Assembly: GCA_039000165.1 (NCBI GenBank)
Contig: JAWBTW010000006.1
Span: 1 to 46,132 of the forward strand
Direction of reading: 5' to 3'
DNA length: 46,132 bases
From: Candidatus Aenigmatarchaeota archaeon
GTDB lineage: Archaea; Aenigmatarchaeota; Aenigmatarchaeia; CG10238-14; SCSR01
The position numbers and the translations under genes were made by a program. Of this stretch, positions 786 through 7,669 are shown in pieces. How positions within the stretch are numbered: the first letter of the stretch is position 1; each line of letters starts with the position of its first letter. The notes under the pieces were generated by a model. It did not search any database. It was not told the DNA's origin and worked only from the letters and a program-made list of their open reading frames with translations.

Positions 786-2381
786 ATGATTAAAAACATA
801 AGGTTTTTAGTAGTTTTAGCTTTTTTAGCAATTTCTGCTTACTTTTTGCTTGCTCCTTTACTTTTTGCATCAAAAGGGGTTGTTGTAGTTTCCATAGATG
901 AAAATAGTAAGTGTGAAGGAATAAGGGAGGGAAGCATAATAACTGAAATGCGTGGTACAGCAATTTCAAGCGAAGAAGATTTTGAAAATTATTTGAAAAA
1001 TGTTAAGCAAGGGGAATACGTAAGCATGGTAATAAACAACTTGCCAGGAGGTTGCACAGCTTTAAACGATAGCTACTTGGGAATAAAAGTAAGAGATTTA
1101 GAAAAGAAAGTTTTAAAGTTTGGAATTGATTTAGCAGGGGGAAAAGTTTCGATTTTTTCTTCACCACAAAACCTAGAAAAAGTGAAAGAAATTCTGGAGA
1201 AAAGAATAGAAATTTTTAAAGTTCCTGAAGCCAGCGTTTCGATTTCTGACAAAACAATAAAAATAATAAGTTTGAAAGATGAGAAGCTTGAACCTTTACT
1301 TATAAAAGGAAAATTTGAGGCAAAAATCTTTGAGGAAATTAAAATAAAAAACAACACTGGAAAAATTCCTCTTGGACAAGAGGATTACACTATAGTCCTT
1401 GAAGATGGTAAGATAAAAATTGATGGAAATTACTACAAAGAAAACGAAACCTTTACTTTACAATCCATAGAATTTACGTTAAAAAACATAACTAACTCAA
1501 GTGTTTATCTTGAAGCTCTAGTTTTCACAAAAGAAGATGTAAAAGTTCTAGCATATGGGTTTGTAAAGTATAACCCCTCAGCAAAACTTTACGAGTTTAA
1601 TATTCCTGTAGAAATTTCTGAAGAAGCTTCTGAAAGAATTTCAAAGATCATAGACAGGATGCCGACAACAACAGAATTTGGAGCTATAGTTTTAAACGGA
1701 AGGTTAATTTACTATTTAGATGGAAAAGAAGTTAGCAACCTAGCAATTCCCTTTAGCATGGTTGGGAGAAAAATTGAGAGCATTTCTATCCTTGGTTTTA
1801 GAGAAAGTGAAGAGGCAGCAAGCCTAGAGAAAAACAAAATTGAAGCTTCTTTAAAAACAGATGAGCTTGAAAAGATGGAATTAATTAAAACAGTTGAACT
1901 AGAAGCAAAATACCCGATGCTTTTAAATTATTTTTTCCTCGTCTCAATTTTAGAGGCGGCCATTTTTTCTTTAATTTCTTTTACTAGATATAAACAAGGA
2001 AAATTTTTAATTTCACTGTTCCTTCTTTCTTTACTTCAAATCTTCTTGATATTTGGGGTTATAGCAATTTCGCAAAGCTTAGTTCCAAACAGCTGGTTAA
2101 TAAATTCTTCCACTCTTTTTGGAAGCTTAACAGCAGAGACCTTAACTTTAATTCAATTTATGTTTATTCTTGAGAAAAGAGTGAGAAAAAAAATAATAAG
2201 CTTAGAATTCAAGTTAAAAAAGATAATAAGTTTATCCAACCTTCTAAACATTTTAACGATATTTTCTTCTCTCGTTCTTATTTTTGTTTTCAAAAACTTT
2301 GGATTAAGCATGCTAACAGGTTTTTTCTTTAGCTTTCTATTTTTAGTCCCACTTCTTGATGAAATAGTAAAATCTACTTGA
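786..2381 (+). CDS. secD: Divergent SecD-like translocase subunit with N-terminal PDZ-like domain
   Basis: N-terminal TM, PDZ-like segment (GVVVVSIDENS...GIREGSIITEM), SecD signature LKFGIDLAGG, 'ILEKRI', C-terminal TM helices. Confidence 0.7.
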   Translation: MIKNIRFLVVLAFLAISAYFLLAPLLFASKGVVVVSIDENSKCEGIREGSIITEMRGTAISSEEDFENYLKNVKQGEYVSMVINNLPGGCTALNDSYLGIKVRDLEKKVLKFGIDLAGGKVSIFSSPQNLEKVKEILEKRIEIFKVPEASVSISDKTIKIISLKDEKLEPLLIKGKFEAKIFEEIKIKNNTGKIPLGQEDYTIVLEDGKIKIDGNYYKENETFTLQSIEFTLKNITNSSVYLEALVFTKEDVKVLAYGFVKYNPSAKLYEFNIPVEISEEASERISKIIDRMPTTTEFGAIVLNGRLIYYLDGKEVSNLAIPFSMVGRKIESISILGFRESEEAASLEKNKIEASLKTDELEKMELIKTVELEAKYPMLLNYFFLVSILEAAIFSLISFTRYKQGKFLISLFLLSLLQIFLIFGVIAISQSLVPNSWLINSSTLFGSLTAETLTLIQFMFILEKRVRKKIISLEFKLKKIISLSNLLNILTIFSSLVLIFVFKNFGLSMLTGFFFSFLFLVPLLDEIVKST

Positions 2382-2904
2382 AAATTTTTCCTAAAATTTT
2401 TGAAGAAGCTCTTTCTGGTAAAGCTTTAGGAAAAACCAAACCTAAGAGAGCTCCAACGATAACATCCGAAGGATAATGCACACCTGAATAGATTGAAGAA
2501 AGAGGAATCAGGAAAAGCAAGTATATCGATAAAAATTTTTTAAGCCAGCTTGGAGAGTTTTCTGGAATAAAGAAAAAAGAAAGATAGGATATGAAGGCAT
2601 GGGAAGAAGGAAAGGATGGGTCTGCTTTCTTGAAAACAACATTTATCTCCTGGTCTGCATCATAAGGCCTTTCTCTTCCAACTAAATATTTAAGTGAAAC
2701 GACAAAAATATAGCCAATAACGGCAACAACAAAAAGATGGAAAAGTTTCTTATGTTGTCTATTTCTAAATAAATCATAAGCGACATAAATCAAGTAAATA
2801 TAAACAGAATAAATAAGGAAAATTGCGAAATAAGCTAAGTGAACAGAAAAAAAGTTAACGTTGAGAAATTTTACAACTTCCAAATCTACCTCGGCTAAAT
2901 TCAT
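2374..2904 (-). CDS. PAP2-family membrane phosphatase
   Basis: K-x6-RP, SFPSSH, GVHYPSDV motifs; hydrophobic segments. Confidence 0.9.
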   Translation of the reverse strand: MNLAEVDLEVVKFLNVNFFSVHLAYFAIFLIYSVYIYLIYVAYDLFRNRQHKKLFHLFVVAVIGYIFVVSLKYLVGRERPYDADQEINVVFKKADPSFPSSHAFISYLSFFFIPENSPSWLKKFLSIYLLFLIPLSSIYSGVHYPSDVIVGALLGLVFPKALPERASSKILGKIFK

Positions 2905-5588
2905 AGCCTGACATACCTCCCTCTTGTCTCACCAAAGTAAAACAGAAGTTCGCCACCACAAACTAAACATTTTCCGATTAAAGGAACTCTTCTGAAGGTT
3001 TTATTACATTTGTTACAAACAAAACCGTCAAAATCGCTCAAAACTTCTTCTTGTTTCTTGTGATTAAAAGCTTCTGAAATGGAGAGAAGCCTTCCAAAAC
3101 TCATAAGCTCGGACTTTTTAACTCCTAAAGCATCGAAAACCCTTTCCAAAGGTGGAAGGAGCTGGCTTTCTATATAATATTTTGAGTCGATTTTTAGGTT
3201 GTGAGTTTTAACATACTCTGGATCTTCTGCTCTTTCTGAAAGAAGTTGAGTTCCTTGAATTATCACATAACCAATTCTATCCCCAATTCCCGGAGCTCCT
3301 GCAGGTGACCTTTTTCTTAACTTTTTAACTAATTCAATATGAGGTTGAACTCCTTTGTATTCCTTTAAAGATTTTGTTATTCCTCTGGTAATTATCAAAT
3401 CCTCTATAGGAATCTCATTTCTACTGAGTTTTGTTAAAACTTCTCTAACATATCTTAAAGCTTTTTTCGGGTTCTGCTCCTTCAAAATTATATCAAGAAC
3501 TTTATACAAAGTTTTGGAAACCAGATCACACCAGTCTCTCCTAACAGTTTCTATTCCTTTCATCACTATTTTTTCCTTCCATTCTCCGTTAGATTTTTCG
3601 AAGCTCCAACCTGCATATCTTTTCTTTGTCAACACAAGCAAAGTCTTAAAAATACCTTCTATTTTCATTTTAACTATACCTGCATGCTCTTTGTTTATAA
3701 ACTCAGCTAACTCTTCACCTAACTTTAAAGCTTCTTCTAAATCAGTTGTTAAAAGCTTCACCATTATAGAATCTGTATCGCCATAAACAACCTCATAACC
3801 TTTCTTACTTTCAACAATATTCTTTGTTTTTTCTATCAAAAACCTTCCACAGCTTGTTATCGCGTTTGCGATTTCCAAAACATAAAGCCTTGCTCTTACA
3901 TAGCCTGTATATCCATAAAAGGCGTTTGCCATTATTTTCAGGGCATATTGCTTCGCATCTAAAACTTTTTTCTCGTTTTCGTTTTTTGCCTTCTCCATTT
4001 CTTTCTTAACCCTGTCTCTTTCTTCTATCAAAAATTTCAAAATTTTGGGAATAATTCCTTCCCTTACTTCCTTCCTTACAAAAAAAGCACCAGAAGGTGT
4101 TTTTATGAGCTCACCTTCACTTTCCTTGACAACCAAAGTCGTTGGACAAATGTTAAAAGAAATAAATATAGAAGGATACATCGAACGGAAGTCAAGATAA
4201 GCAACACAATTCGTATGCAGACCAACTTTTGGCTCTAGAACCAAAGCTCCCTTCAAACCTTTTACTTCTCTTTCTTCCATTCTTTTGAAAACTTCATCAG
4301 AAGAAGGCTTAACAGGGATAACAAAATCTCTCTTGTTAAATTCACGAAGCAATAAGTTCTCTACTCTTGCACTTTCTTTACTGTCTAAAACATCTTGCAA
4401 AAGTAAACCTGAAACTTTTGAAAGTTCCACAAATTTACTCAACATGTCCTTCTCCACTAAAAGTTTCAAGGTAAGTTCAGCATCCTTTCTTGCATAATTT
4501 ATCAATTCGTGCTTCTGCTCTTCAGAACCGTTCCAGAATTTTGAAATCTCACTATGAGTTATATCGACTTTATCTTCCTTCAGCAATTCTTTCGCAACAT
4601 CTCCTAGGCCGTACCTTTTAAGCCTAAGCAAGCCTTTTTCGACAGCCTCTTTAACAAGCTCATAAACATCAACCACAACCCTCCCAAAAACAGAGTGTCT
4701 ATACCTGATGCCAACTTTCTTTGAACTTGTAGCTTTTTGCTGGCACCTTCCTAAAACTCTTGGTATTTTGTTAACTCTTAACCTTTCAAGAATGTATGGT
4801 AAATCAAAATTGTTTATGTTGTAACCAACTATCACATCCGGATCGAATTTTTTTATCACTTCGACAAACTCCTGGAGCATTTCAGCCTCATTTGAAAAAA
4901 CGACAACATCCTTTTCAAATTTTTTAACAGGTTTTGAAACTAAAACTAATGTATTGTTGTTTTCGTAAGCAGGAAAAAAGGAAAGGCTTATTATTATTAT
5001 CGGGTCTTTTAAAGGGTTGGGTGTACCTTCCTTTCCTGGAACAACTTCTATATCTAAGCTTAAGTATTTTAGGTTAACATTTGATTTTTCATCTATACTT
5101 TCAATTTTTCTTACTTTAATCACTTTATCTGCCTTGACAAGAATAGTGTTCATGTTTTGACCCTCAACTTTAATCCAACCCATTCCCGAAATGTTAAAGT
5201 CTGCCATAAATCTGTATTTGAAAAGGATGTCTGCTTCAAAAATCTTATCGATAAAATCTTTTTTGTTAAGCTCCTCTCTTATTTCTGGAACTTTGGAAGG
5301 ATCAGTAAGAGTTACTCTTAACATTTTTACCTTATTCTTGCTGAATCCTATTGGTAAAAATTTTTCCTCTTCCTTAATTTCAACTAATAAGGAGAAAAAT
5401 TTTTTCTTCATAAAATCCACAAACTCTTGCTCGCAACCTTTTTTAGGTAAAACGTAAAAATAAGGTAAAAAATTCTCGTAAAAGGCACAAACTGTTTTTC
5501 CTTCTTTCGTTTTTCCGAAAATTCTTATTATTGGTTTGCCGTCTAAAGGAATGTAATCGCAGTCAAGAACTTGAAATATCACTTCCAT
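2901..5588 (-). CDS. polB: Family-B DNA polymerase with C-terminal DP2-like zinc finger
   Basis: ExoI DIE, ExoII YNINNFD, ExoIII YARKD; Pol motifs DFRSMYPS, KIMANAFYG, YGDTDS; C-terminal CNKC-x-RRVPLIGKCLVCGG. Confidence 0.97.
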   Translation of the reverse strand: MEVIFQVLDCDYIPLDGKPIIRIFGKTKEGKTVCAFYENFLPYFYVLPKKGCEQEFVDFMKKKFFSLLVEIKEEEKFLPIGFSKNKVKMLRVTLTDPSKVPEIREELNKKDFIDKIFEADILFKYRFMADFNISGMGWIKVEGQNMNTILVKADKVIKVRKIESIDEKSNVNLKYLSLDIEVVPGKEGTPNPLKDPIIIISLSFFPAYENNNTLVLVSKPVKKFEKDVVVFSNEAEMLQEFVEVIKKFDPDVIVGYNINNFDLPYILERLRVNKIPRVLGRCQQKATSSKKVGIRYRHSVFGRVVVDVYELVKEAVEKGLLRLKRYGLGDVAKELLKEDKVDITHSEISKFWNGSEEQKHELINYARKDAELTLKLLVEKDMLSKFVELSKVSGLLLQDVLDSKESARVENLLLREFNKRDFVIPVKPSSDEVFKRMEEREVKGLKGALVLEPKVGLHTNCVAYLDFRSMYPSIFISFNICPTTLVVKESEGELIKTPSGAFFVRKEVREGIIPKILKFLIEERDRVKKEMEKAKNENEKKVLDAKQYALKIMANAFYGYTGYVRARLYVLEIANAITSCGRFLIEKTKNIVESKKGYEVVYGDTDSIMVKLLTTDLEEALKLGEELAEFINKEHAGIVKMKIEGIFKTLLVLTKKRYAGWSFEKSNGEWKEKIVMKGIETVRRDWCDLVSKTLYKVLDIILKEQNPKKALRYVREVLTKLSRNEIPIEDLIITRGITKSLKEYKGVQPHIELVKKLRKRSPAGAPGIGDRIGYVIIQGTQLLSERAEDPEYVKTHNLKIDSKYYIESQLLPPLERVFDALGVKKSELMSFGRLLSISEAFNHKKQEEVLSDFDGFVCNKCNKTFRRVPLIGKCLVCGGELLFYFGETRGRYVRL

Positions 5589-5597
5589 ATTCTTAAA

Positions 5598-6767
5598 TTA
5601 AGTGAAATCTATTTTAATAGTTTCTCTTGTTTTTAAGTTAACTAACCAAAAAACAGGTTTGGTTAAAAAACTTCCTGTGGTTAGGATTGTTGTTCCCTTG
5701 TAATTTAAAACTGAAGGAAAATGAAAATGACCAGAAGCTAAAATATCTGGAACTAAATCTATGATGAATGGGTTTGGGATGTAAATTTGCTTTTGTGTTT
5801 GTGGGATTTGTCTCTTCCTGAGTATGTTTAATAAAATCTTTTCAGGTAGAGCATTGAAAAAAGAAAAATCAAAATTTGGATGAAGAATTAGAAGATTTAA
5901 GGATTTTTCAACTTTAAGAAATGATGGACTTTCTATGAATTCTTCTTTTTCTGGATCTATCTCTCCCTTAAGCCAGGTATAATGGTAGCCTTTTGGTAAG
6001 TTACTAAACATTTCTTCAAAATCCTCAACTCTTGAAGAAATGTCGCCAAGAAAAAAAACATAAAGTTTTTTGTATAAGGAGTTGTTTATCCAATCTAAAA
6101 ATTTCTCATAACTTTTTTTGTTGAAATTCTTGTCATCCATATGAAAATCTGAAACAAAAAGACAAAAAGCCTCTTCAGAAGTTTTACTAATTTCTTTTTT
6201 AAGTGGAATTTCAGGTAAAACAACCTTTTTCACATAAATCCTTTCACCTTCTCTTTCACAAACCAAACCTAAAACTTCATCTTCAAGAATAAAGTTAAAA
6301 TCTTCACTCAAATTCTCAAAGTAAACTGTTTGTTCGCCAGTTAAGTCTTCCACTACCAAATACTTTTCGTTCTCATTTTTTTCTTTCACCATAACTATTA
6401 ATGAAAACTTCCTTGATTTTGGTGAGATTTTATTTATTGATATTAAATTAACTAAGTCCAAATGCTTAACCAAAAATTTTTTTATTTCCTCATATTTTGT
6501 GGAAAGGAAGTTAGTATAATCAGAAACGCTTAGAATCTTATCTTCTTTTTTCGGAGTTTTTAAGATTTCTGAGTAATAGGTTAACTTTTTTTCTATTTCT
6601 TTTAAAACATCTAGAGTCACTATTAAGGGGTAGTTTGATTTTTTTAGTTCTTCCAAGTAGAAATTTATGTTCTTTTTTTCAAGTAAGTAATCTAGTGCTT
6701 GTGGGTTTAGTTGGAAGCCGTTTTTCAAAAATTCCTTAATAATTTGTTGCCTTTCCATACAACTCAT
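5598..6767 (-). CDS. PolD small-subunit (DP1)/B-subunit-like protein, probably nuclease-degenerate
   Basis: N-terminal helical domain (IIKEFLKNGFQLNPQALDYL), OB fold (IVMVKEK...VEDLTG...ILEDEVLG), phosphoesterase motifs SDFH, GD, PDILASGHFH, YKGTTIL. Confidence 0.85.
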   Translation of the reverse strand: MSCMERQQIIKEFLKNGFQLNPQALDYLLEKKNINFYLEELKKSNYPLIVTLDVLKEIEKKLTYYSEILKTPKKEDKILSVSDYTNFLSTKYEEIKKFLVKHLDLVNLISINKISPKSRKFSLIVMVKEKNENEKYLVVEDLTGEQTVYFENLSEDFNFILEDEVLGLVCEREGERIYVKKVVLPEIPLKKEISKTSEEAFCLFVSDFHMDDKNFNKKSYEKFLDWINNSLYKKLYVFFLGDISSRVEDFEEMFSNLPKGYHYTWLKGEIDPEKEEFIESPSFLKVEKSLNLLILHPNFDFSFFNALPEKILLNILRKRQIPQTQKQIYIPNPFIIDLVPDILASGHFHFPSVLNYKGTTILTTGSFLTKPVFWLVNLKTRETIKIDFT

Positions 6768-6775
6768 AGGAATTT

Positions 6776-7033
6776 TTATCTTTTTAATATATAAACTGTA
6801 AGACCTTTCTTACCTTCTTTTTTAGAATGAGGTGTTGGGATTGCTTCTATTTTTCCAATTTCAACAAGTTCGTTTAAATATTTATCTACAGTGTTCCAAC
6901 TAACTTCCTTACCAATTTTTTCACTAATCATACTACGAATTGCGTTTATAGAAATAGGGGTGTTTACATCTTTCAAAACTTCCACTATAAGGTTTTGAAC
7001 TTCAAACCTTTTACTTGGTCTTCCTCTTTTCAT
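6776..7033 (-). CDS. Small winged-helix protein
   Basis: 85 aa; basic N-terminus KRGRP, HTH (SINAIRSMISEK...VSWNTVDKYLNELVEIGKI) and wing; 8 nt upstream of the DP1-like gene. Confidence 0.75.
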   Translation of the reverse strand: MKRGRPSKRFEVQNLIVEVLKDVNTPISINAIRSMISEKIGKEVSWNTVDKYLNELVEIGKIEAIPTPHSKKEGKKGLTVYILKR

Positions 7034-7048
7034 CTTTTCACTATCATT

Positions 7049-7062
7049 TTTTATGAACTTTC
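7049..7062 (-). repeat. Inverted copy of the array core (GAAAGTTCATAAAA on minus strand)
   Basis: TTTTATGAACTTTC is the exact reverse complement of the 14-mer repeated in 7122-7207. Confidence 0.85.
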
Positions 7063-7071
7063 TAAATTAAG

Positions 7072-7080
7072 TATAAATAA
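7072..7080 (-). promoter_or_regulatory. Putative TATA box of the wHTH-DP1-polB operon
   Basis: TTATTTATA on the minus strand about 40 nt upstream of ATG 7033. Confidence 0.5.
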
Positions 7081-7121
7081 ACAATATAAAATTTTCAGGA
7101 AATTTTTTTACCTTATTACTT

Positions 7122-7207
7122 TTCATAAAATTTTTCCGAAAGTTCATAAAAATTGTTTGAAAGTTCATAAAATTTTTCCGAAAGTTCATAAAAATTGTTT
7201 TTGAAAA
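7122..7207 (+). repeat. Four tandem 21-bp direct repeats in ABAB arrangement
   Basis: TTCATAAAATTTTTCCGAAAG (7122, 7164) alternating with TTCATAAAAATTGTTTGAAAG (7143; variant at 7185). Confidence 0.92.
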
Positions 7208-7282
7208 TTATTAGAAGTGAAGAATTTTGAAAAACATTAAATTTCTTATAATATACAGCTATTCAAAAAATTTTCCAAATCT

Positions 7283-7669
7283 TTACAAAAATTTCATCAA
7301 CCCATTTATCATGAAGAATTTTATGATGATAGCTCGAACAAAATTTTCTTTTCCCCTTAGTGGTTCATAGCTGGTTGGGTTGGAATGTTTTACTTTCACT
7401 AACAAATTCATCTTAACCAATTTGTTAAGCCTTTTTCTTAACGCTTCTATCCCTATCTTAAAGTGGTGAGTGTTCTTAAGTTCGCTATAAAGAAGTGGAA
7501 AACAATACGGTTGAGTATCGTTTGGAAACTCTTTACCTGTCATGTAAAATTTTCTTAAAATTTGAATGTCAATAAAATCCAAACGTTCGATTAAAGATAG
7601 AATTTCATCCTTCATTTCTAAATTTTTTTCTATAGAGATATTATCCATAAGTGAATCTGTGCTGTTCAT
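7283..7669 (-). CDS. Winged-helix protein of unknown function
   Basis: LDFIDIQILRKFY, HTH-like LLYSELK...IGIEALRKRLNKLVKMNLLVKV, wing NPTSY; ends LMKFL. Confidence 0.65.
   Translation of the reverse strand: MNSTDSLMDNISIEKNLEMKDEILSLIERLDFIDIQILRKFYMTGKEFPNDTQPYCFPLLYSELKNTHHFKIGIEALRKRLNKLVKMNLLVKVKHSNPTSYEPLRGKENFVRAIIIKFFMINGLMKFL

Follow-up and report, generated by a model that had tools for sequence, protein, structure and literature searches.

The closest described systems to the gene analyzed here come from its own phylum. This gene is a DP1-like gene on the minus strand of a 46,132-nucleotide stretch of DNA ("the window") from Candidatus Aenigmatarchaeota archaeon (GenBank assembly GCA_039000165.1, contig JAWBTW010000006.1, positions 1 to 46,132), where it lies beside a gene for a family-B DNA polymerase (PolB). 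Most Aenigmarchaeota are described as lacking DP2, the catalytic subunit of DNA polymerase D (PolD), and their B6 PolBs bear, at the C terminus, one ("B6-aenigma1") or two metal-binding motifs that were acquired from the third zinc finger of DP2 (Kazlauskas et al. 2020, PMC7544198). The co-occurring DP1s, in a clade named "Aenigma_GB_GCA_002789635-like," are reported as inactive, "presumably" because PolB has its own proofreading domain (PMC7544198). For Aenigmatarchaeota and Baldrarchaeia, yeast two-hybrid assays and AlphaFold3 later showed binding of DP1 to PolB-DP2CTD, whereas PolBs without the C-terminal domain are not bound by DP1 (Nat Ecol Evol 2025, PMC12680538).

In canonical PolD from Pyrococcus abyssi (5IHE, 6HMF, and 6T8H), DP1 combines an N-terminal domain, an OB fold, and a phosphodiesterase (PDE) domain, and the Zn-III finger of DP2 with its RRxP loop is the docking element. 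The two arginines of this loop sit in an electronegative groove between the OB and PDE domains of DP1, and a peptide of 20 residues from Zn-III has nanomolar affinity for DP1 (PMC6355029).

The pair encoded in the window recapitulates these arrangements. With the B6-aenigma1 system it shares a DP2 that was not found, a PolB tail with one DP2-like motif, a DP1 with inactivated motifs, and homologues within Aenigmatarchaeota, and there is no difference of substance. The system of 2025 involves the same protein pair in the same phylum; the genome of the window also encodes a second PolB that has no finger, and the baldrarchaeial PolB3 possesses a longer and fuller C-terminal domain than the PolB of the window (PMC12680538). 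The domain organization of canonical PolD and its RRxP-bearing docking finger recur as well. However, the partner is a family-B polymerase instead of the two-barrel DP2, the DP1-like protein has lost the catalytic histidine and three loops (about 390 versus 460–640 amino acids), and PolB's C-terminal domain lacks roughly 60 residues that follow the Zn-III finger in DP2. Similar to the eukaryotic B subunits (Pol delta p50, Pol epsilon p59, and Pol alpha p70), the DP1-like protein would be an inactive PDE/OB subunit on the cysteine-rich tail of a family-B polymerase, but PolB features one Cys motif and not CysA plus CysB.

The DP1–PolB system of this phylum is therefore already published (2020, 2025), and its evolutionary significance has been drawn in print in the same two studies: the pair offers a living model for the presumed origin of the eukaryotic replicative polymerases, in which a family-B polymerase captures the docking module of PolD and keeps the small subunit as an inactive adaptor. 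The window contributes a well-assembled example with intermediate decay of the active site and opens no new question; its proteins could make a convenient small construct set for biochemistry. Our additions are small, namely weak predicted support for a contact of the DP1 N-terminal domain (DP1N) with Gins51, a lineage-by-lineage account of ligand decay, and a conserved winged-helix gene upstream. A term search of the main text of PMC7544198 located no statement on gene adjacency, a lineage-wise gradient of ligand loss, or upstream genes.

The DP1-like protein and its probable PolB partner

Very probably, the product of the DP1-like gene is the second, non-catalytic subunit of a replicase whose other subunit is a family-B polymerase, in an aenigmatarchaeotal (DPANN) archaeon without DP2. 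The lineage would have lost DP2, and PolB would have gained a short tail finger derived from the Zn-III module of DP2. The basic RRxP loop of PolB is proposed to dock in the groove between the OB and PDE domains of the DP1-like protein, which would parallel the docking of the DP2 C-terminal domain in PolD and of the C-terminal domains of the catalytic subunits on eukaryotic B subunits. Proofreading would be carried out by the 3'-5' exonuclease of PolB and no longer by the DP1-like protein, whose retained N-terminal four-helix domain would tether the polymerase to Gins51 of a CMG-like helicase. The features that this reading draws on are as follows.

5598..6767, minus strand: DP1-like/B-subunit-like gene from the list of open reading frames (ORFs), 389 amino acids from the first ATG or 386 amino acids from 6758
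6588..6767, minus strand: N-terminal four-helix domain, DP1N-like (residues 1–60), from the model helices and the alignment with long DP1 N termini
6213..6416, minus strand: OB fold (about residues 118–185), from the model strands and the alignment with long DP1s
5601..6170, minus strand: reduced phosphodiesterase domain (residues 200–389) with three deletions, from the alignment with long DP1s
5955..5969, minus strand: remnant of motif III, KGEID (residues 267–271), with Ile270 in place of the catalytic histidine, from the alignment and the PDB profile search
2901..5588, minus strand: family-B DNA polymerase of 895 amino acids, from the Pfam DNA_pol_B and exonuclease domains; its start codon lies 9 nucleotides past the stop of the DP1-like gene
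2958..3017, minus strand: C-terminal Cys4 zinc finger of PolB (residues 858–877) with RRVP loop, of the DP2 Zn-III type, from the NF003103 match and the comparison with DP2 C termini

The length of 389 residues given in an earlier reading of this DNA (the original prediction) agrees with the ORF list, but the second ATG at 6758 is the start in relatives and in the database gene call P0001, and 386 residues are equally likely.

All five NCBIfam models of the PolD small subunit match the DP1-like protein. The best of them, NF003118 (E = 1.1e-40), yields 140.1 bits against a cut-off of 445 bits, and the other four matches fall further below their cut-offs. By score, the protein thus stands outside canonical DP1 (NCBIfam PRK04036 equivalogs). 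Pfam assigns Metallophos_2 only, at 17.9 bits and below the 27-bit cut-off, whereas PF04042 (DNA_pol_E_B), which some family members do carry, gives no match to the protein at E <= 0.01. Solved DP1 chains are matched by sequence at E values of about 1e-14. An AlphaFold2 model built from 41 family members (pLDDT 91.1, pTM 0.86) comprises four N-terminal helices (residues 6–15, 22–31, 34–43, and 52–60), an OB barrel with strands within residues 120–183, and a reduced alpha/beta domain; the N-terminal helical domain and OB fold that the original prediction described as persisting are thus present in a confident model. In a Foldseek search, P. abyssi DP1 is the top match (E = 1.6e-24, TM 0.67), ahead of the B subunits of eukaryotic Pol delta (6tny_B, 1.1e-17), Pol epsilon (5vbn_A, 3.4e-14), and Pol alpha (4y97_G, 1.6e-11). 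No B subunit is as near to the protein as DP1, by sequence or by fold. Glu140, Asp141, Asp163, and Pro185 of the OB region do not vary when the protein is aligned with long DP1s, and Phe13, Gly17, and Leu25 of the N-terminal domain are nearly invariant across the 41 family members.

A word-indexed search recovered 145 database relatives, the closest of which (77–34% identity) are named Candidatus Aenigmatarchaeota hypothetical proteins, and an exhaustive search recovered 875 cluster representatives at E <= 0.001, including 85 at E <= 1e-30. With homologues down to E = 3e-193, the value of the best one, the gene is no chance ORF. A single-protein search of the genome contigs for related loci returned 153 pattern matches, none of which was confirmed.

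The neighboring PolB matches the Pfam DNA_pol_B family with 409.5 bits and an exonuclease domain with 130.1 bits. Its sequence strings at residues 178–181, 257–262, 365–369, 466–473, 551–559, and 602–607 correspond to what we take to be three exonuclease and three polymerase motifs, and the enzyme is apparently active. It is therefore reasonable to assign proofreading to the PolB exonuclease, whose motif strings are intact, as the original prediction did and as was also proposed in print (PMC7544198).

In the tail of PolB, residues 856–883 match positions 1042–1069 of the 1125-position DP2 model NF003103 (E = 3.3e-5), and the last 40 residues contain a single Cys motif, the Cys4 finger with its RRVP loop. 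We compared 20 PolB C termini from across the phylum with five DP2 C termini from its one DP2-bearing family. The finger is found in all 20 PolB tails, with a second Cys pair that reads CxxC in nine and CxC in 11 (L069, L072–L075, L078–L080, and L085–L087). The RRxP loop is present in 19 of them, or in 20 of 21 tails when the window is counted, the exception being L076 with Arg-Ser (RS-x-P), and it occurs in the same setting in all five DP2 C termini. By analogy with the published pairs, the DP1-like protein would bind this very PolB. The original prediction was right in its core but overlooked this DP2-type finger, the putative docking site, as well as the published status of the system. In several relatives (for example, G105, G173, G022, G064, G188, and G115), the open frame of the finger-bearing PolB extends to 1300–1400 instead of about 900 amino acids, which suggests an intein or another insertion.

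The 28 residues at the C terminus of this PolB are also the only match to NF003103 in the assembly that contains the window (E = 3.5e-6), which comprises 783 kb in 25 contigs and is 91.6% complete. PF03833, the Pfam model for the DP2 N terminus, has no match in this 91.6% complete assembly. The DP1-like protein is the sole DP1 homologue of the genome, so that "paralog," the term used in the original prediction, does not apply.

In a sample of 201 genomes from the phylum, the family profile of the DP1-like protein is matched in 193 and NF003103 in 161. Among the matches listed, near-full-length DP2 occurs only in family f11 (8/8 genomes). Apart from the fragments in G091 and G168 described below and weak mid-model matches in G148 and G068 (E about 1.5e-4), the other listed matches to NF003103 cover model positions within 1021–1107 only and lie in frames of mostly 870–960 amino acids, a few being longer or cut. 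The DP1s of f11 are long (six ORFs of 472–512 amino acids from seven fetched loci), and all six keep the GNHD of motif III. The substitutions of the DP1-like protein are thus not shared by the DP2-bound DP1s of the lineage, a comparison that the original prediction had called for.

In 107 genomes, a place for a short DP1-like gene and a place for a finger without the rest of DP2 were both among the matches listed. The two lie within 6.5 kb of each other in 101 of these genomes.

Finger on the same strand, downstream of the DP1-like gene at 2.56–6.42 kb: 93/107 genomes
Finger on the same strand, upstream of the DP1-like gene: 1/107 genomes
Finger on the opposite strand, 0.5–4 kb from the DP1-like gene: 7/107 genomes
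Finger on a different contig from the DP1-like gene: 6/107 genomes

In all 30 fetched loci, PolB starts directly after the DP1-like gene. This fixed linkage bears on the idea that the DP1-like gene is a decaying relic without function. The protein does evolve faster than its neighbor (28–77% identity to the window, compared with 50–87% for the first ~490 residues of PolB over the same 29 relatives), and its catalytic motifs drift freely. However, apart from the constant position next to PolB, the frame is kept open in nearly the whole phylum sample, 14 non-catalytic residues are invariant among the 41 aligned members (Ser110, Ser122, Asp141, Cys170, Pro185, Arg319, Pro340, Asp341, Tyr356, Lys357, Gly358, Thr360, Leu378, and Arg381), the N-terminal domain is conserved, and binding has been published from yeast two-hybrid assays (PMC12680538). 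A functionless relic is therefore very improbable.

The N-terminal domain and Gins51

DP1N has been described as four helices (PMC9023282), and the N-terminal domain of the DP1-like protein, conserved in the family, is modeled as a similar four-helix bundle. A potential partner is available: the genome encodes a Gins51-type GINS of 177 amino acids with a C-terminal domain on contig C12, and of the 61 genomes of the order, 60 have a match to such a protein. The gene that adjoins Gins51 on C12 looks primase-like when its sequence is read by eye.

We predicted a complex between residues 1–75 of the DP1-like protein and residues 120–177 of Gins51, both supplied as their own alignments, together with three controls. 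The pair scored 0.42 (0.42, 0.43, and 0.42 in the individual runs), whereas the best control scored 0.00. The partner has a pLDDT of 74, and the runs share at least 95% of their contacts. In the calibration of the method, 116 of 157 solved complexes and two of 215 mismatches attained the mark, but a passing score of 0.60 or under was obtained by only 18 of the 157 solved complexes and by both passing mismatches. The DP1N–Gins51C–GAN complex of Thermococcus kodakarensis is already solved, and the pass predicted here may reflect memory or likeness only. The chances that the N-terminal domain links to Gins51 are about evenly balanced. What the original prediction said of an adaptor to the helicase via GINS holds as far as the conserved N-terminal domain and the presence of Gins51 are concerned, whereas the connection itself is still conjectural. 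Within the excerpts covered, those of the papers searched that mention Aenigmatarchaeota, DP1, and GINS draw no link between the DP1 N-terminal domain and GINS for this phylum.

Decay of the nuclease site and the alternative readings

To describe the nuclease site, we aligned the DP1-like protein with four kin and 12 long DP1s; the latter score 397–562 bits on NF003118, and four of the 12 exceed its cut-off. Motif I (SDFH, residues 206–209) keeps Asp207 and His209. Motif II (GDISSR, residues 241–246) keeps Gly-Asp242, but "xxDG" and about 19 subsequent residues are deleted. Motif III reads KGEID (residues 267–271) in place of PGNHD, with glutamate for asparagine and Ile270 for histidine. In motif IV (LHPN, residues 295–298), His296 is kept and glycine is replaced by proline, and RHLAP is replaced by RQIPQ (RKRQIPQ, residues 317–323). 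Motif V (SGHFH, residues 345–349) retains GHxH. The protein is short because of two more deletions, one past motif III and one near the C terminus, where a 13-residue insert is gone; three loops are deleted in all. Every motif state listed in the original prediction reappears in this alignment.

A PDB profile search places Ile270 in the column of His451 of P. abyssi DP1 (PGNHDA in 5ihe_A, PGNADA in the H451A variant 6hmf_A). His451 is the critical proton donor, and the H451A variant is exonuclease-deficient (PMC6355029). The partly inactivated nuclease site of the original prediction is thus confirmed at its catalytic histidine. Judged from these replacements, the site is disabled by a natural change at the standard position for exonuclease-dead mutations, and the DP1-like protein probably has no nuclease activity. 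It would have lost proofreading because isoleucine replaces the proton-donor histidine of motif III and the site lacks three of its surrounding loops.

The decay of the site differs between lineages. No metal-ligand column is invariant among the 41 aligned family members. We took a census of all 232 collected proteins of 300–425 amino acids, the protein of the window included, as related rows in one automatic alignment. In their motif III columns, histidine occurs in five, asparagine in 25, and both in one. Of eight canonical residues, 124 of the 232 proteins keep none or one, whereas 60 keep six or seven. The exact pattern of the window, D-H-D-E-x-H-H-H, is found in 24, and all four genomes of its genus carry D-H-D-E-[IV]-H-H-H. 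Within the same family, genera g10, g3, and g7 keep most of the ligand pattern at only 35–47% identity, whereas almost no ligands remain in g5, g6, g9, g11, g2, and g16. Because these latter genera retain the gene in its place, the metal site appears dispensable. The lineage of the window stands, by its sequence, at the well-preserved end of ligand decay, which adds a nuance to "inactive DP1" and does not contradict it.

A quick tree of 63 rows was built from 44 short representatives taken in roughly even steps, the protein of the window, 12 long DP1s, and six DP1s of f11. One branch (SH-aLRT 99) separates the 45 short forms, and the DP1s of f11 fall among the long DP1s; the tree is unrooted and says nothing about a descent of the short form from the long DP1 of the same phylum.

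Several points weigh against the two-subunit replicase. The genome contains a second family-B polymerase (contig C17:7617-8852, minus strand, 832-amino acid frame, 246.7 bits), so that the neighboring PolB is only presumably the genome replicase. The C17 protein has no C-terminal Cys motif, and with narrow patterns, both the first exonuclease motif and polymerase motif A went undetected; it may be a divergent or inactivated paralogue. The C-terminal domain of the aenigmatarchaeotal PolB has been called "degenerate," being shorter and of different predicted structure (PMC12680538). The verdict of the prediction tool on the GINS contact is itself only "weak support." Ligand-type residues persist at six of seven metal positions (Asp207, His209, Asp242, His296, His347, and His349), with glutamate in place of the asparagine, and a metal centre with some residual or altered hydrolytic activity may exist because H451A DP1 of P. 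abyssi still retains both bound metals (PMC6355029). Finally, DP2 is "not found" in a fragmented, incomplete assembly and not proven absent, and fragments of DP2 occur on small contigs of two relatives, G168:C78 from the same genus and G091:C64.

The persisting ligands lead to the alternative that the DP1-like protein is still an enzyme, with a two-metal centre in which glutamate stands in for asparagine and with nuclease or phosphoesterase activity, weak or altered, beside the PolB exonuclease. The recurrence of the exact pattern of the window, the 60 proteins with six or seven residues, the ligands kept by g10, g3, and g7, and the metals bound by H451A DP1 all favor an enzyme, as do three short proteins (P0049, P0053, and P0122) that feature Asp-His at motif III, as in one long DP1. 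But a grouping by pattern is circular and its rows are related, the loops past motifs II and III are deleted, the centre is dispensable in the six depleted genera, and the loss of the proton-donor histidine alone makes PolD exonuclease-deficient (PMC6355029). We consider a remaining enzymatic function quite unlikely.

The DP2 fragments lead to another alternative, in which the protein is an ordinary PolD small subunit and its DP2 is encoded in genome sequence missing from the assembly. The incompleteness of the assembly and the DP2 C-terminal fragment of the same-genus relative would fit. However, a search of the other two genomes of the genus found no DP2 proper, the listed matches to full-length DP2 are confined to f11, and the relatives that bear DP2 have long DP1s with GNHD. 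Moreover, the protein of the window stays far below the cut-off of NF003118 and has no catalytic histidine, and PolB itself carries the docking finger. It is therefore highly improbable that an undetected DP2 is the partner. As for the fragments themselves, that of G168:C78 is a 721-nucleotide stretch and that of G091:C64 adjoins a DP1 fragment, and both genomes otherwise carry the short DP1–PolB pair. The stray fragments are probably mis-binned DNA but may represent a second PolD system.

Upstream genes and the 14-mer region

The genes and repeats upstream of the DP1-like gene are arranged as follows.

6776..7033, minus strand: small winged-helix gene, 85 amino acids, Pfam TBPIP/Hop2 winged helix at 23.1 bits (cut-off 22.8), 8 nucleotides upstream of the DP1-like ATG
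7034..7282, no strand: intergenic DNA in which a 14-mer recurs in four exact copies (7049–7062 on the minus strand; 7138–7151, 7159–7172, and 7180–7193 on the plus strand)
7283..7669, minus strand: conserved ORF of 128 amino acids upstream of the cluster, from the ORF list; upstream in 24/30 loci

By their spacing, the winged-helix gene, the DP1-like gene, and PolB appear to form a tight operon. In 28 of 30 loci, the gene immediately upstream of the DP1-like gene is the winged-helix gene (42–84% identity to the copy of the window); of the two loci without it, one is at a contig start and one belongs to another family. Its product is more conserved than the DP1-like protein (42–84% versus 28–77% identity). 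A single-protein search detected it in four families of the order, f1 (38/41), f3 (9/9), f5, and f6, but not in f2 (0/12), and only rarely in the rest of the phylum. Database relatives number 27, or 28 rows when the window is counted, and all are unnamed or hypothetical. A fold search with its model gave generic matches (Pol III C39, Fur/Zur, PadR, and Hop2; best E = 5.7e-4), with the winged helix of Rpa2 at rank 49. The 128-residue ORF has no Pfam family at E <= 0.01.

In other families of the phylum (L037 and L105–L114), the position directly upstream of the DP1-like gene is occupied by an ORC1-type gene in 10 of 11 loci. These genes encode 395–445 amino acids and end 7–169 nucleotides before the DP1-like gene, and all nine that were scanned match NF001625. 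In the family of the window, the place of ORC1 is taken by the 128-residue ORF and the winged-helix gene, and the Orc1 genes of the genome lie on contigs C3 and C10. We considered the winged-helix gene as a remnant of the Orc1/Cdc6 winged-helix domain, but a profile–profile comparison detected no relation (probability 0.2%, E = 0.35, 13 columns).

Three copies of the 14-mer are direct (7138, 7159, and 7180, at 21-nucleotide spacing) and one is inverted (7049); no other exact copy exists in the assembly. Two loci of the same genus have two exact copies each, and none occurs in a third (127 nucleotides available) or in 22 loci of other genera. The cluster looks operator-like, and a local autoregulator would be the simplest reading of the winged-helix protein. 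A more elaborate alternative is a three-part replicase tethered to the helicase, in which the winged-helix protein is a third subunit on the DP1-like protein, the N-terminal domain is hooked to Gins51, and the surviving ligands form a structural two-metal centre in the genus of the window. The N-terminal winged helix of Pol32/p66 docks on a eukaryotic B subunit, which offers a parallel. We regard this assembly as unlikely. None of the papers searched mentions Aenigmatarchaeota, DP1, and "winged" together.

At the other end of the operon, a gene for a PAP2-family membrane phosphatase (2374-2904, minus strand, 69.3 bits) overlaps the PolB stop by four nucleotides in the same orientation and may share a transcript with the polymerase genes. 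The G+C content of the window is ~32%.

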